Part shown: in pieces, positions 4,495 through 45,217 of the stretch
How positions within the stretch are numbered: position 1 is the stretch's first letter
Layout: the number at the start of each line of letters is the position of its first letter
Sequence record: MF093736
DNA from: Shigella phage vB_SsoS-ISF002
Length of the DNA: 50,564 nucleotides
Direction: 5' to 3' (one strand)
Notes under the pieces: generated by a model
What the model was told of the DNA's origin: nothing
The model's input: the letters and a program-made list of their open reading frames with translations, nothing else
Databases searched by the model: none
Program-made: the position numbers and the translations under genes

Positions 4495-4736
4495 GTGATT
4501 ATCTCAGAAGAAAGTTCTTCTACGTCTTTTTGGATGATTAATGGCCAATTCTCAATGTATTCATTCCTTATCTCTTCGAAAGACATATCAAGAGAACTAG
4601 TGAACTCCCACAGATCGCAACCAATAACATCCTTAGTCAATCCATTTCGCTCCATAATCTCGCAGCACGTAGCTCGATAAAGTAGCCATAAACCTTGCTC
4701 AGTTAATTTAACAGGAACCATTTTTTCGCTCATCAT
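4485..4736 (-). CDS. hypothetical protein (start at internal ATG overlapping the Dam stop, ATGA)
   Basis: RBS ggtgaggaaag before ATGATG; the start overlaps the upstream stop, suggesting translational coupling. Confidence 0.45.
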   Translation of the reverse strand: MMSEKMVPVKLTEQGLWLLYRATCCEIMERNGLTKDVIGCDLWEFTSSLDMSFEEIRNEYIENWPLIIQKDVEELSSEIITQH

Positions 4737-8552: not shown

Positions 8553-9488
8553 GTGAACGAAGAATTTATGATGTTTCAGAAAGAGGACGTTTTGCCGTAC
8601 ATGAAGGGGTTATGGCGCGAGGCTTTCCAGTCAGTCTGCGGGTTGCAGAATGAGGTGTTTAATAAGAAGCACCAACCTTGCCCCAACTGCGGCGGTAAAG
8701 ACCGCTTTCGATGGACCGATAACTTAAACACTCCGGGCGACGGCGGCGCGATCTGCAACTCATGCGGGAACGACTCCGGGATCGGGTGGCTAATGAAATT
8801 AACTGGTATGCCGTACAGTGAATGTATAAACATCCTGGGGAGATTTCTCGGAAAAGTTCCGCAGGAATATATCGTCAAGGCGAACAAGAAAGCGCGCCGG
8901 ACTCCGGTAGCTGGCGTCAATGTCATGATGGCAGATCATGAAGCGGTGATGAAAGTCATGGAGCGCACAGAGAAGCGCGTAAACACACCACTAAGCATGT
9001 TTGAGTCGCTACCTACTGAATCATTCGACGTTGGCGTAAAACGTCGCGATGATGGCGGGGAGAGCGTATTTCACACTATCCCGTGTCAACTTGTGCATGA
9101 GGACGGGCTTGATGACGAGTTTTGCAATATTTTGATTATTGACGAGGAAGGAAGGGAGTCATTTTACGCTAAGAAATACACAAGTTGCTCGGTTGCCGTG
9201 ACTGGTAAAACTGAGAAGGCGATCTACTTGTGTCTAAACTGGATTGACGCTCAGCACATAGCCTTTCACACAAAACAGGAAGTGTGGGCCTGCTTCACTC
9301 CTGAAAACCTAGAAATGGTTGCGTACAGATACAAGGGAGAGCGGGAGGTAAGGGTTGCGTGCGAACCATCTGATAAAGAAACTTTATACATGGCAGACGA
9401 CAGACAATTAAAAATAATCATCCCGAATCCTGGAGGATACCGCTCAGGAATGCAAGCCAAATTATTCTCAGCAAGTGACCTACTCTAA
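8553..9488 (+). CDS. DNA primase (N-terminal zinc-ribbon type)
   Basis: CPNCGGKDRFRWTD ... CNSCGNDSGIGW matches the primase zinc-binding ribbon pattern; GTG start with RBS ggag. Confidence 0.65.
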   Translation: MNEEFMMFQKEDVLPYMKGLWREAFQSVCGLQNEVFNKKHQPCPNCGGKDRFRWTDNLNTPGDGGAICNSCGNDSGIGWLMKLTGMPYSECINILGRFLGKVPQEYIVKANKKARRTPVAGVNVMMADHEAVMKVMERTEKRVNTPLSMFESLPTESFDVGVKRRDDGGESVFHTIPCQLVHEDGLDDEFCNILIIDEEGRESFYAKKYTSCSVAVTGKTEKAIYLCLNWIDAQHIAFHTKQEVWACFTPENLEMVAYRYKGEREVRVACEPSDKETLYMADDRQLKIIIPNPGGYRSGMQAKLFSASDLL

Positions 9489-9588: not shown

Positions 9589-11382
9589 ATGGCTTTATAT
9601 AGACGCGGCACTGCATCAATGGATGCAGACGGCACGGTTCACGGAACCGATACAAAATGGAAAGATCAACTTGCTCTGATTCGAGTCGGTGCAACTATCG
9701 TATTCCTGGAGCAACCAATTAAGCTGGCGGTGATTAGCGATATCGTTAGCGACACAGAGTTAAAGGCTATCTCTACGGATGGTCAGACTGCCGCTGACGG
9801 TAAGTATGTGATCCTGCTTAACGATTCGTTGACTGTTAACGGATTAGCTCAAAACGTTGCTGAGACGCTTCGATACTATCAAAGCAAAGAGACTGAGATC
9901 GCGGCAGCTATAGATCTGATAAATCAGCTTGATATGAATAAACTTGAGCAAATAGTTGCTGATGTGAATCAGGCGAAATCTGATTCTCAAGCTGCGCAAA
10001 ATCAGGCTGAATTAGCGCGTGACGCAGCCAACGCTGCACGCGATGAAACTAACTCAATCAAGAATCAGACGCAACAGATTGTTGACGGTGCTGTCGGTAG
10101 CATCAATGCGGCTAAGGATCAGGCTATAACCGATGTGCAGCAAAAAGAAAATTCATCCATCACTCACATTGACTCAGAAGAAGCGGCGGCGATTCAGGCA
10201 ATTAATGACGCAAAAGGCGATCTGTCAGGTTACGTTAATGACGCTCAGACGGCAGCACAAACGGCGACCTCTGCAAAAAACGACGCTCAGGCAGCGCGTG
10301 ACGATGCGGTAAGCTCAAAAGATGCGGCTGCGGTAAGTGCTCAAGAAGCAAAAGACGCAGCTAACAGCATCAATGCTGAAAATCTTTTAACTAAGGATGG
10401 CAATCTAGCTGGTCTTGAGGATAAAAAAGAGTCAAGAAAAAATATTGGGTTAGGTGAAAATGATGCTGTTAACTTTCTTACTATTAACACCACTGGCGCT
10501 ATAGCTGCAGGAAGGAATTCATGGGACGGTTCTAGCTGGGGTAGTCAGTCCATATTGTCATCATTGATGATTATGTCACCTGATGGAATATCTACGCCAG
10601 GTATTTACGTCAGAAAAGAACGTAGCGATAATGGTTATGCTGGGACTTTATTATTTTATGAAGGGGCAAACTACTTCGAGACTAACAATAGATTTAGAGC
10701 CAATCAGTTTTTATGCCAGAAAACATCTATGGGTTACAACCAGATGTGGTCTGCTTCATGCTTCCAGGGTAATTCTTACACCGCCGATAGTGGCGCTGAA
10801 AACTATCAATCACTTGTTGCTGGATCGTGTGATACAAGGGGGCAAGGGTATGTTGGCGGCGTAGCATTTGGCATGATGACTACGGGTAATGCTGAATGGC
10901 CCAGAGCACAAATATCAGTAGGCACTCAAGATAGGGATGTAGCAGGCAATATTGGTCTGCAAATGCATTTCAGGTTTATGGCTTCAGGGCAAATATCTTA
11001 CGCTGGACCGCAAGGGGCTGGAAGTTTCCAACAGGTTCCGGCATCTGACAGAAATATAAAGCACAGCATAAAGGATGATGAATCAAGCATCGCATACAAC
11101 AACATAAAGTCAATGAGATTTAGGAACTTTATATTTAACGACGATGAGCAAGAAAGGGTAAGGCGAGGTGTTATAGCTCAGGAGATAGAAGAGATCGACA
11201 ATCTATATGTTAAGAGAAGGGTGTATGAGAGCCACGAGCTAAACGGGCCAAAAGTTGAAAGACTTGAGCTTGATACAACTCCTTTATTGCTTGACACTAT
11301 GAGAGCTTTACAGGATACAATAAAGAAAGTTGAAGAGTTACAAGAAAAGATAAAAATGTTGAAGAGTTACAAGAAGAGATAA
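9589..11382 (+). CDS. tail fibre protein with a C-terminal intramolecular chaperone domain
   Basis: Long Ala/Gln/Asp-rich coiled N-terminal half; C-terminal VPASDRNIKHSIKDDE...AQEIEEI resembles the autocleaving chaperone domain of phage fibres and endosialidases. Confidence 0.7.
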   Translation: MALYRRGTASMDADGTVHGTDTKWKDQLALIRVGATIVFLEQPIKLAVISDIVSDTELKAISTDGQTAADGKYVILLNDSLTVNGLAQNVAETLRYYQSKETEIAAAIDLINQLDMNKLEQIVADVNQAKSDSQAAQNQAELARDAANAARDETNSIKNQTQQIVDGAVGSINAAKDQAITDVQQKENSSITHIDSEEAAAIQAINDAKGDLSGYVNDAQTAAQTATSAKNDAQAARDDAVSSKDAAAVSAQEAKDAANSINAENLLTKDGNLAGLEDKKESRKNIGLGENDAVNFLTINTTGAIAAGRNSWDGSSWGSQSILSSLMIMSPDGISTPGIYVRKERSDNGYAGTLLFYEGANYFETNNRFRANQFLCQKTSMGYNQMWSASCFQGNSYTADSGAENYQSLVAGSCDTRGQGYVGGVAFGMMTTGNAEWPRAQISVGTQDRDVAGNIGLQMHFRFMASGQISYAGPQGAGSFQQVPASDRNIKHSIKDDESSIAYNNIKSMRFRNFIFNDDEQERVRRGVIAQEIEEIDNLYVKRRVYESHELNGPKVERLELDTTPLLLDTMRALQDTIKKVEELQEKIKMLKSYKKR

Positions 11383-11393
11383 AAATGTTGAAG
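11329..11393 (+). repeat. 29-bp tandem direct repeat (2.2 copies) spanning the tail fibre stop codon
   Basis: gttgaagagttacaagaaaagataaaaat followed by gttgaagagttacaagaagagataaaaat, then gttgaag. Confidence 0.9.
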
Positions 11394-11403
11394 TCCAAAT
11401 GAT

Positions 11404-11429
11404 AAAATCCCCGCATTGCGGGGATTTTT
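11404..11429. terminator. bidirectional rho-independent terminator between the tail fibre and ssb genes
   Basis: Perfect 11-bp stem aaaatccccgc / gcggggatttt with a 3-nt loop. Confidence 0.7.
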
Positions 11430-11430
11430 G

Positions 11431-11844
11431 TTAGAACGGGATATCATCATCGAAAGTTGATTGAGGATTTGGCTGTGGCTGTGATTGAGTTCGCTGTTGT
11501 TGCTGCGGTGCTCGTTGTTGATTGCTTTGTCCTCGTTGACTAAATACCAACTTCGGGAAGTCAGCGGCCTGCAATGAATTGTAAACCGTTCCATTGTGTT
11601 CACGGGATGAGATCTTCAATGTCTCGCATGATACTGATACGACGCGACCAACCTGGAACGCTTCACGATACCAATCAGCAAGGCCAGGCTTTCCACCATC
11701 GCTAAAAAAGAATGTGTAGTTTGTGTATTCTCGATCGCCATCACGAGGCTTATAGCTTTCTGCCAGTTCGATGATATAAGTATTGCCTCCGTTACGTTCA
11801 AGAATCTTAGGTTCTTTGCGGATCTCGCCAGTGATAATATGCAT
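11431..11844 (-). CDS. ssb: single-stranded DNA-binding protein
   Basis: OB-fold-like N-terminus, Gln/Pro-rich linker and acidic C-terminal tail DDDIPF. Confidence 0.85.
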   Translation of the reverse strand: MHIITGEIRKEPKILERNGGNTYIIELAESYKPRDGDREYTNYTFFFSDGGKPGLADWYREAFQVGRVVSVSCETLKISSREHNGTVYNSLQAADFPKLVFSQRGQSNQQRAPQQQQRTQSQPQPNPQSTFDDDIPF

Positions 11845-13676: not shown

Positions 13677-14203
13677 TGCGTTTATCTCCTTCGTTTACGA
13701 TGAATCCATTATAGCCATTAACGGCGTTTAGTCAATCGAATACATGTAATTGGTGTGTAATAGCGTGTCTATATCGCTCAAGTTACAACCAGCATTAACG
13801 GAATCAATTGCTTAAGTCTATTTTTATGTGATGTCTACTGTGTAATACTTGTAACCGCTTTTTCTTAGAAATACAGAGATAGCTACAAGTAGAATCCATA
13901 TTGATTAAATTTTGAACATATATGATAGAAATTTGACGAATCAATCAAATCACCAGTTACACGATAGACAACTGTTACACAACAATAATTATATATATAA
14001 AGCTAAAATTAAATATTATCTATCTATATATATTATATAGAGTTTTTATCATATCCCTCTGCTGTCGGGTGGGGTGGATTTTGTAACACCCGCTCCGGTT
14101 ACAAAAATAGACACCCGTTACACGAAAAAAACTGTAATCGTGCTATTGCAATAAAAGTAAATGCGACATACAATGCAATCACACTAACGACGAGGACATA
14201 CAA
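13677..14203. promoter_or_regulatory. AT-rich divergent intergenic control region
   Basis: 527 bp non-coding; atatata tracts; GTTACAC repeats; palindrome TTGTAAC-N10-GTTACAA at about 14080..14103; TAGACAACTGTTA element shared with the 44.9-kb region. Confidence 0.5.
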
Positions 14204-30181: not shown

Positions 30182-31294
30182 TTACATTACTTTGCTTAAA
30201 CGTGAATTTGGCGTAACAGGTGCGGCGTCGTTTTTCTCTTCCGGCTTACCGCCTTCGATAGAATCGCCTTTTACCGCCTTACGCTGAATAGCCATAATAT
30301 CAGAATCCTTAGCAACATCAAACATAGCGTCGATATATGCGTCTGATTTTTCGCTAACATCTTTATCAAGCATAGCTTTGACAACAGCGACCTTAACGTC
30401 TTTGATATCAAGACCATCATGTTTAACGCCTGCGGTTTCCGCTACTGCGGTGACTTCAGCACGCGCTGCGGCGTCAGCTTTTTGCTTCTCTACTTCGGCC
30501 TTCACCAGTTCCGGCAGGGAGTCAACCTTAACCTTCAGCGCATCGCGCTCAGCTTCTAAGCCATCAGCTTTCCCCTGAATGGTGGCAATCTGCGCGGTTA
30601 ATTTTTCGATATGGTTCGCAACATCTTCGGTCACTTCCACATCAACTGAGTCGATCTTAATTTTTTTCATTTGCTTGTCCTCGTTAGTTAATTGAACGTT
30701 ATTATCATACGGGAACTCCTGCTCGGCATCAAGGTTTAATTTAGCAATTCCAGCGCGACCCTTGAAAACAAGTGCAATGTGGTTTACCTTGATGTTTGTT
30801 TGAACAGCATCGAATTTAACCCAACCTTCAGGCGGCGCTTCGTCCTGTTTCATATCCTCTTCGAAGATATATTCTCCAGTCTCATTTGAACCCCATCCCG
30901 GCTTATCAATATCTACTGACGTGTAGCCAACAGATAATTCACCAGCTTCTTTTGCTTTAGCCTTGCTGATCGCGTAGTCGCTGTAAATGCTCAAAGGGAC
31001 TTCAACTCCAACGCCTGAAGCAATACCAGCGCCAGCGCACGATCCTACAACAACGTCCTTAGCATTTTGCGGAGTCACCGTTACGTGACCTACTGTGATC
31101 GGCTTGCCTGCAAAACTTTGCAAGGAATCTTGCTTGAAAACTTCGGACGCCGGACGGAACTCAACGCGATCGCCGTGGGGAGTCTTGTAAACCTGAGCAC
31201 CGATTCGCGCCACGATGGGACGGTCAACCAAAAAACCATTATCATCAAAGTGCGCCTTGATTTTTACCGAGTCGAATCTTTGCTTTGCCTTCAT
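30182..31294 (-). CDS. capsid scaffolding protein, possibly with an N-terminal prohead protease-like domain
   Basis: C-terminal coiled coil rich in A/E/K; placed between the head morphogenesis and capsid genes; start at the internal ATG next to the upstream stop. Confidence 0.5.
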   Translation of the reverse strand: MKAKQRFDSVKIKAHFDDNGFLVDRPIVARIGAQVYKTPHGDRVEFRPASEVFKQDSLQSFAGKPITVGHVTVTPQNAKDVVVGSCAGAGIASGVGVEVPLSIYSDYAISKAKAKEAGELSVGYTSVDIDKPGWGSNETGEYIFEEDMKQDEAPPEGWVKFDAVQTNIKVNHIALVFKGRAGIAKLNLDAEQEFPYDNNVQLTNEDKQMKKIKIDSVDVEVTEDVANHIEKLTAQIATIQGKADGLEAERDALKVKVDSLPELVKAEVEKQKADAAARAEVTAVAETAGVKHDGLDIKDVKVAVVKAMLDKDVSEKSDAYIDAMFDVAKDSDIMAIQRKAVKGDSIEGGKPEEKNDAAPVTPNSRLSKVM

Positions 31295-43602: not shown

Positions 43603-43933
43603 CTACAATGAACTCGACGTCGGTGATTTCCCACCCTTCCGGCTGCGTAATGTTCATAAGCTCACAGTGCGGAACCTCAAGGCTTTTCATCTTGAGGGTT
43701 ATCTTGTACTGATTCTTGATTTCGTGAATAAGTCTAAGAACCTTCACTGACGCCTCTTTCTTGCTAAGACCCCTTACGTCGTACGTTGGGCCAATAGTAT
43801 TAAGGTTTACTTTGATTAATTTTTTACCAGTCACGGCATCAGCTATCTTCTTGATGTTCTCTTCCTGCTTCTCGCTTTCCAGCTTTCGTCTTTCCATCAC
43901 CTTCGTATCAAACATGTTAGTAAACATAATCAC
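43598..43933 (-). CDS. hypothetical protein (111 aa)
   Basis: ORF with ATG start. Confidence 0.45.
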   Translation of the reverse strand: MIMFTNMFDTKVMERRKLESEKQEENIKKIADAVTGKKLIKVNLNTIGPTYDVRGLSKKEASVKVLRLIHEIKNQYKITLKMKSLEVPHCELMNITQPEGWEITDVEFIVE

Positions 43934-44605: not shown

Positions 44606-45217
44606 GGCTTGCAGGTCGATTTTAAGTGTGGTTAATCGTGTTAATCGTGTTAATCGCTTTCCCCATATAAATATGAGCCGATAAAACTACTGTATATATA
44701 AACATGAATACAATAATCAGAGCATCCAACGATTAACATAGTAGACACGCTATACAACCATATTACAGATAATAGTATCTATATATATAAATAAAAAAAA
44801 TACTTATATATTATATATATACATATAGATATATGTATATTATAAGGCGTAATTTGGTGTAATTTTGTCTACTATTGAGATTCAGGCAAATTGTAGACAA
44901 CTGTTAACACACGGTCAAGTGTAACCGTAATCGATAGCACGTTTTGCTAAAAATGGAGATAACCACCAGGCGAACCGGGTAACACCAGATCCTCCCTCTC
45001 ACAATCATTGCATTCTAAGCAACAAATAAACCAACTGTTGCACACCGTGCAATAATCACGTTTCATCATTCGTAATCAATAACAATCAAGGTTATTACAC
45101 CTATTCCAGTATTGATGGAATAATGAGCAATTATTGGAATAGCATTTTTTGCTAACGACTCGGTCGGGTAGGTCGGGTATAGTCCGGCCCATAAACCAAT
45201 CAGAAGAGGAAGCAACA
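44606..45217. promoter_or_regulatory. AT-rich divergent control region between the two arms (candidate origin, packaging or early-promoter hub)
   Basis: 612 bp non-coding; tatatata tracts; 3 tandem GTTAATCGT 9-mers at 44631..44657; boxes at 44934 and 45138; CAACTGTT elements at 44897 and 45034. Confidence 0.5.
44631..44657. repeat. three tandem 9-bp repeats (gttaatcgt, gttaatcgt, gttaatcgc)
   Basis: Direct reading. Confidence 0.9.

Follow-up and report, generated by a model that had tools for sequence, protein, structure and literature searches.

A duplicated 29-nt unit at the 3′ end of the lateral tail-fibre gene of Shigella phage vB_SsoS-ISF002, probably a one-off slippage event

Introduction

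At the 3′ end of its lateral tail-fibre gene, the deposited sequence of Shigella phage vB_SsoS-ISF002 (MF093736) carries a 29-nt unit twice, head-to-tail and with no spacer, followed by the first 7 nt of a further unit, and this array spans the stop codon of the gene. Such an arrangement raises the question of whether the number of units governs how the fibre protein ends, as would be expected if the site varied through slippage, or whether the second unit is an isolated accident, either of the replication of the phage or of the assembly of its sequence. An initial annotation, made from the letters of the sequence without database searches, had described two near-identical units and a partial third over the stop codon, and had suggested either a hotspot of slipped-strand variation or an assembly artefact. 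All positions given here are those of the window, that is, the whole stretch of 50,564 nt that was analysed, and those of the main features are collected in Table 1.

Table 1. Main features at the 3′ end of the fibre gene and around it
Feature	Positions	Strand	Details
Lateral tail-fibre gene	9589-11382	+	597 aa; ORF list and exact-sequence look-up
Peptidase_S74 intramolecular chaperone domain	11044-11379	+	Residues 486-597, C-terminal
Repeat copy 1	11329-11357	+	29 nt, GTTGAAGAGTTACAAGAAAAGATAAAAAT; in frame 0 reads V E E L Q E K I K (M)
Repeat copy 2	11358-11386	+	29 nt, GTTGAAGAGTTACAAGAAGAGATAAAAAT; one frame over, reads (M) L K S Y K K R stop
Partial third copy	11387-11393	+	7 nt, GTTGAAG; alignments to relatives
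Ancestral stop codons, TGA TAA	11400-11405	+	Used by all one-unit relatives; untranslated in ISF002
Hairpin, AAAATCCCCGC-ATT-GCGGGGATTTT, and T run	11404-11429		In the interval that separates the fibre gene from the convergent SSB gene
SSB gene	11431-11844	-	Convergent with the fibre gene; ORF list and annotated ISF001 homologue; unaffected by the duplication

The fibre gene and its chaperone domain

The 597-aa product of the gene has exactly the sequence of ASD50898.1 / YP_009609263.1, recorded as a tail fiber protein from vB_SsoS-ISF002. This phage is a Tunavirus of the Drexlerviridae, and its genome is about 97% identical to that of vB_SflS-ISF001 (Tunavirus, Tunavirinae, Drexlerviridae) and collinear with it. 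Where the lateral tail-fibre locus lies in Drexlerviridae has been described for the BASEL collection, where conservation of the gene was found to be limited to its far 5′ end (PMC8594841). The ISF002 gene occupies that same position between primase and recombination genes, as the primase gene lies upstream (8553-9488) and the genes for SSB, a recombinase and an exonuclease follow on the minus strand. Residues 1-163 (9589-10077) align to the N-termini of the solved ‘Depolymerase’ chains 7vyv, 7vz3 and 7lzj (E ~1e-42), a match consistent with the remark on the conserved 5′ end; the segment, which other phage fibres and depolymerases share, looks like a virion-attachment module combined with quite different distal domains.

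At the opposite end of the protein, Pfam family PF13884 is matched at residues 486-536 (33.8 bits; gathering threshold 22), and S486 (codon 11044-11046) and K491, within the motif SDRNIK, show the spacing of a Ser-Lys dyad. In pb1 of phage T5, the catalytic dyad is S1264/K1269 and cleavage takes place at S1264, this autoproteolysis freeing the chaperone domain after folding; the domain ends as a trimeric coiled coil of its C-terminal helix (1371-1394 of 1396), and this distal coiled coil has been proposed as the starting point of folding (PMC4690869). With HMMER, residues 16-124 of the ISF002 domain fragment matched positions 958-1074 (of 1076) of 8hqz_d, ‘L-shaped tail fiber assembly’ (E 3.3e-10), and S486-D-R-N-I-K491 was aligned to S-G-I-E-Y-K. 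A single-sequence AlphaFold monomer model of residues 468-597 was poor overall (pLDDT 61.6), but a terminal helix, the one part of the model that is used here, was confidently predicted at residues 564-596, with block pLDDT values of 91, 97 and 87. By analogy with the homologues, the S74 domain is expected to be released by autoproteolysis after the fibre has folded, and so to lie outside the mature virion, and the terminal helix would form a coiled coil. The placement of the repeat inside a C-terminal chaperone domain, already made in the initial annotation, is borne out by the Pfam match and by the spacing of S486 and K491. The duplication thus hits the tip of the predicted C-terminal helix of this domain.

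A repeat that changes the last codons

The 29-nt tandem repeat is present far above chance expectation, and the units and coordinates described initially agree with the sequence and with Tandem Repeats Finder. The latter program reports an array at 11320-11393 (period 29, 2.5 copies, 93% matches, score 125), which is the top-scoring one of the whole window. A pattern search for the 29-mer, with up to 3 mismatches, found the two copies and no others in the window, 0 being expected from 100 shuffles. Likewise, the longest self-match for periods of 10-100, if one mismatch is tolerated, extends over 36 nt, has a period of 29 and starts at 11329, while the maximum obtained with the same criterion over 100 dinucleotide-preserving shuffles was 16 nt. 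The only mismatch between the copies is A11347 (copy 1) against G11376 (copy 2), and the partial copy is followed by TCCAAATGATAA.

Copy 1 opens on a first codon position (11329), and copy 2 on a third. As deposited, the fibre ends in ...KIKMLKSYKKR, with its stop codon, TAA, at 11380-11382, within copy 2; when either copy is deleted in silico, the end becomes ...IKMLKSK and the stop codon is TGA, at 11400-11402. The duplication thus brings the stop forward by 20 nt, so that it lies upstream at 11380 instead of at 11400. Adding a third copy in silico leaves the protein unaltered and, because the stop codon falls in copy 2, all alleles with at least two units encode a single product. Both C-termini had been correctly predicted beforehand (...KIKMLKSYKKR with two copies and ...KIKMLKSK with one). 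The accompanying idea, that copy number sets the frame of the last codons, needs to be narrowed: one and two units do differ, but there is no free setting, only two outcomes being available. Moreover, although the two ends were rightly given, comparing them in that way conceals that one of the differences is a point difference.

In net terms, K594 is replaced by Y594-K595-K596-R597, and E587K is added, the latter arising from A11347 and not from the change of frame. The peptide IKMLKS is regenerated because, in the one-unit allele, the partial repeat downstream is already read in the shifted register, as (M) L K S K stop. The helix keeps its hydrophobic core residues (M, L, I, V, L, I, L), and about +4 of charge is added per chain at its tip. 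The fibre of ISF002 shares with T5 pb1, DT57C LtfA (8hqz) and the K1F endosialidase the S74 Pfam match and the Ser...Lys(+5) dyad and, in its one-unit allele, it is predicted to have, like T5 pb1 and 8hqz, an amphipathic terminal helix that stops within 1-2 residues of the C-terminus. What sets the two-unit allele apart from these three proteins is that three basic or aromatic residues follow the customary end, and that a surface residue of the helix has changed from E to K.

A programmed ribosomal frameshift, or a hidden ORF of greater length, was also considered and rejected. There is no slippery heptamer of the form X XXY YYZ, as the run ATAAAAATG holds five A only, and the alternative frames close after a few codons.

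Copy number among relatives

The DNA of 21 distinct relatives was retrieved and the site inspected directly. Exactly one unit was found in all of them (21/21), two units being restricted to the vB_SsoS-ISF002 record. The unit is identical to copy 2 in 19 of the 21, while UP30 (ATAAAAACATTGAAG) and the divergent vB_SsoS_008 carry about 1-2 substitutions. GAAGAG is found in 20/21 (the divergent vB_SsoS_008 being the one without it) and the A variant in none (0/21). The heptamer GTTGAAG stands at both ends of the unit, 29 bp apart, in 20/21 relatives, the downstream site of UP30 being ATTGAAG.

Similar results were obtained with broader searches. Megablast of positions 11000-11460 against 50,697 phage records matched 30 of them, and in the full-length matches the 461-nt query corresponded to 432 nt, that is, 29 fewer, except in pSf-2 (-27) and in the divergent vB_SsoS_008; with the more sensitive blastn, the 311 nt of positions 11150-11460 likewise corresponded to 282 nt. 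At the protein level, the cluster at 90% identity has 20 members, 15 of which are listed, and among those listed only the protein of the window has 597 aa. Of the other 14 listed members, 13 are full-length, with 594 aa and the ending ...QEEIKMLKSK (VEELQEEIKMLKSK), and several of these listed 594-aa proteins were encoded by Logan and ENA assemblies, each built from an independent sequencing run. With the final 125 aa as query, a word-indexed search of proteins gave 3 hits, which are informative for their C-termini only.

Metagenomic and bacterial sequences were searched as well. The duplication junction, AAAAATGTTGAAGAGTTACAAG, was absent from IMG/VR, and a pattern fitting both alleles found 5 loci there, each with one unit. 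A pattern fitting the one- and two-unit alleles had zero matches in metagenome and GTDB genome scans, as did the region in complete E. coli genomes, and a contig look-up for the exact 597-aa protein returned no independent contig on record. With one unit in the relatives and neither the junction nor the protein found elsewhere, the two-unit state is unique to the ISF002 record.

Among the relatives, the C-terminus takes several forms, for instance ...EIAALKK in the metagenomic P0003, ...RLISEGC in vB_SsoS_008 and IKTLKSK in UP30. The extreme C-terminus is thus under no strong constraint in this fibre family.

Is copy number a switch?

Phase-variable contingency loci are built on simple-sequence repeats, for example the tetranucleotide repeats of surface genes in Haemophilus and Neisseria. 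The ISF002 array resembles them in having a repeat unit that is not a multiple of three within a gene for a surface structure. It departs from them in consisting of two long 29-nt units, in showing neither copy-number polymorphism among relatives nor on/off products, and in affecting a peptide that would be discarded.

If the array were nonetheless a slipped-strand contingency locus, its copy number would toggle within populations and yield two C-termini of the fibre precursor. The length of the unit, together with the fact that the repeat crosses the stop codon, would suit such a role, and diversifying pressure generally acts on loci for tail fibres (PMC8594841). By contrast, copy-number polymorphism is absent among the 21 relatives and the listed cluster members, all the full-length ones of which end in ...EEIKMLKSK, so that the suggestion of a hotspot finds no support, there being one event in about 20 genomes and no recurrent variation. 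Furthermore, with 2.2 units only, and an ancestral allele that offers a 7-nt repeat, slippage rates are expected to be ordinary. The two outcomes possible differ in the last 1-4 residues, at least two copies all giving one protein with no on/off products, and the residues affected close a domain that would be shed after folding. Consequently, we consider a contingency locus very improbable.

Replication slippage or assembly artefact

According to the slipped-strand model of Streisinger and of Levinson and Gutman, short direct repeats give rise to duplications and deletions, cases of which are known from lacI, T4 (rII) and T7. The one-unit allele of the fibre gene has the sequence ...AAA GTTGAAG AGTTACAAGAAGAGATAAAAAT GTTGAAG TCC..., and the unit that is duplicated in ISF002 runs from heptamer to heptamer, just as slipped-strand mispairing yields, which makes slippage the mechanism that we infer. 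An endpoint ambiguity of 7 nt has a probability of about 4^-7 by chance.

We therefore favour, with a probability of about 0.6, a real duplication by slippage that occurred once, is specific to this lineage and is neutral or nearly so. In this event, misalignment of the template during replication, between the two pre-existing GTTGAAG heptamers located 29 bp apart, would have produced the tandem duplication. The additional 29 nt would have shifted the frame of the last codons and, as ...IKMLKS would have been regenerated, only the residues downstream of it would have changed. A G-to-A substitution in copy 1, after the duplication, would then have led to E587K. Finally, the altered tip of the S74 helix would be discarded together with the domain once the fibre had folded, and thus would be absent from the mature virion.

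With respect to the single difference between the copies, A11347 is most simply explained as a substitution later than the duplication, because G is present in every single-unit relative that has the allele (vB_SsoS_008 differs); with a local divergence of about 2%, one substitution per 29 nt would arise by chance about 40% of the time. Like classic slipped-strand duplications, this one is head-to-tail and spacerless, has GTTGAAG at the unit ends in the unduplicated allele and occurs in a single lineage. Its mechanism would be ordinary in comparison with those cases, and what distinguishes it is that the partial repeat downstream was already in the shifted frame, so that most of the peptide was regained.

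There are, however, observations that fit this reading less well. The allele is known from one deposited assembly, and the single base by which its copies differ could, instead of a later mutation, mark two read variants of one segment that an assembler joined end to end. The alternative to be considered here is that the true genome has one unit and that a spurious second one entered the deposited sequence through assembly or consensus calling; a possible route is that G/A read variants (11347/11376) of one segment were serialised while a de Bruijn graph was resolved or a gap closed. Copies differing by exactly one base are what serialised bubble arms would look like, and the allele is found in a single record, the 14 other listed cluster members having one unit, Logan and ENA assemblies included. 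The genome of ISF001, a phage sequenced by the same group, is a SOAPdenovo 2.04 assembly of Illumina reads at very high depth (PMC6667099), and ISF002 presumably went through that pipeline too. The fibre record of ISF001 is itself locally scrambled, paired compensating 1-nt indels breaking SDRNIK, which hints at consensus problems.

On the other hand, an artefact would hardly be expected to have endpoints that match a pre-existing 7-nt direct repeat, a match that is the signature of biological slippage: assemblers rarely join on overlaps of 7 nt, and the boundaries of k-mer artefacts follow k rather than microhomology. The remainder of the genome is collinear with ISF001 and free of other duplications. 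Indels between the two genomes amount to a handful, of 1-8 nt, and this clean collinearity indicates that the assembly is not broadly ridden with duplications. Additionally, the ORF remains open up to a clean stop and the helix core is kept. We regard an artefact as the main rival reading, less likely than slippage.

Could the new C-terminus matter?

Returning to a real duplication by slippage, its neutrality, or near-neutrality, is most likely in view of the unaltered helix core and of the expected release of the domain. This last part of the reading must be set against the charge of about +4 added at the helix tip, which could affect the nucleation of the trimer. In an adaptive version, YKKR and E587K would have been selected through coiled-coil nucleation, through the efficiency of autocleavage or through coupling to translation termination. 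Both changes unique to ISF002 add positive charge and lie less than 30 nt apart, and the folding of T5 pb1 has been proposed to begin at the corresponding coiled coil (PMC4690869). With regard to termination, the ancestral stop abuts the hairpin of Table 1, while the stop of ISF002 now lies 21 nt upstream of it. Selection is nevertheless hard to reconcile with an allele that recurs in no relative, with a single substitution in 29 nt that is unremarkable (~40%, as calculated above) and with core positions that have been kept, and we give an adaptive variant little credence.

A bolder proposal would combine the above, the two-unit allele being both real and functional: YKKR and E587K would alter the nucleation of trimerisation or the cleavage, and the unit bounded by GTTGAAG would expand and contract in populations. 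If this were true, T1-like phages would gain a simple switch that acts on fibre assembly rather than on receptor contact, but we consider it most unlikely.

We take the duplication for an ordinary mutation, or possibly an error, of a type that is well known, as is the domain in which it lies. Its biological weight is slight, as it concerns a textbook product of slippage, the disposable end of a fibre precursor and a single deposited genome. In practice, it serves as a curation flag on RefSeq YP_009609263.1, whose 597 aa set it apart from its relatives solely through a 29-nt insertion. It also illustrates how a frameshifting duplication can be nearly silent in the protein when a flanking partial repeat is already in the shifted frame.

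Terminator hairpin and other observations

The hairpin between the fibre and SSB genes has a folding energy, as RNA, of -19.6 kcal/mol (z -4.3), remains intact despite the duplication and is probably a bidirectional intrinsic terminator. A consensus terminator scan missed it because its stem, extended by A/T pairs, absorbs the T run, but the hairpin is revealed by direct folding. Together with the 3′ end of the SSB gene, it is kept in many Drexlerviridae that do not have the fibre allele of ISF002 (blastn, query 255-311). The loop is ATT or AAT across relatives, and the stem change of pSf-2 is compensatory (AAAGCCCCGC...GCGGGGCTTT).

Other arrays reported by Tandem Repeats Finder in the window are found at 13897-13936 (21 nt x 2), 30246-30293 (25 nt x 1.9), 43862-43896 (15 nt x 2.3) and 44776-44844 (a degenerate TA tract of ~70 nt). 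None of these four arrays contains an indel relative to ISF001, so that both genomes share them without any difference in copy number. At 4733 and 40187, the same comparison revealed two 8-nt indels (TAAATTTT and ATTTTTCT, both missing from the window). Neither of them is a tandem repeat and, thus, small duplications are no general feature of this pair of phages.

In the fibre gene of ISF001 (MG049919.1), the closest relative, a dense cluster of substitutions was observed at ~11058-11108, which corresponds to 11050-11100 of the window. A G is missing at ~11051 and an extra C is present at ~11061 (window positions), so that SDRNIKHS becomes SDKIKTLS and the catalytic Lys is displaced; in this patch, the window agrees with all other relatives. 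The patch could be a local consensus error or a genuinely divergent stretch.

In vB_SsoS_008 (MK335533.1), the annotation splits the fibre gene into two CDSs (643-1461 and 1544-2401, in coordinates of the fetched segment). Its 3′ end differs, as the conserved TGTTGAAGTCC is read as TGT TGA, in another frame, giving ...RLISEGC. In this phage, the last codons of the fibre and the flank of the terminator behave like a recombination boundary.

Finally, FCWL1 (PP558327.1; fetched segment 600-965) diverges from the other relatives right after the fibre stop codon. In its sequence, a DNA primase gene on the same strand replaces the terminator and the convergent SSB gene, an arrangement that reflects either a rearrangement or a mis-join.
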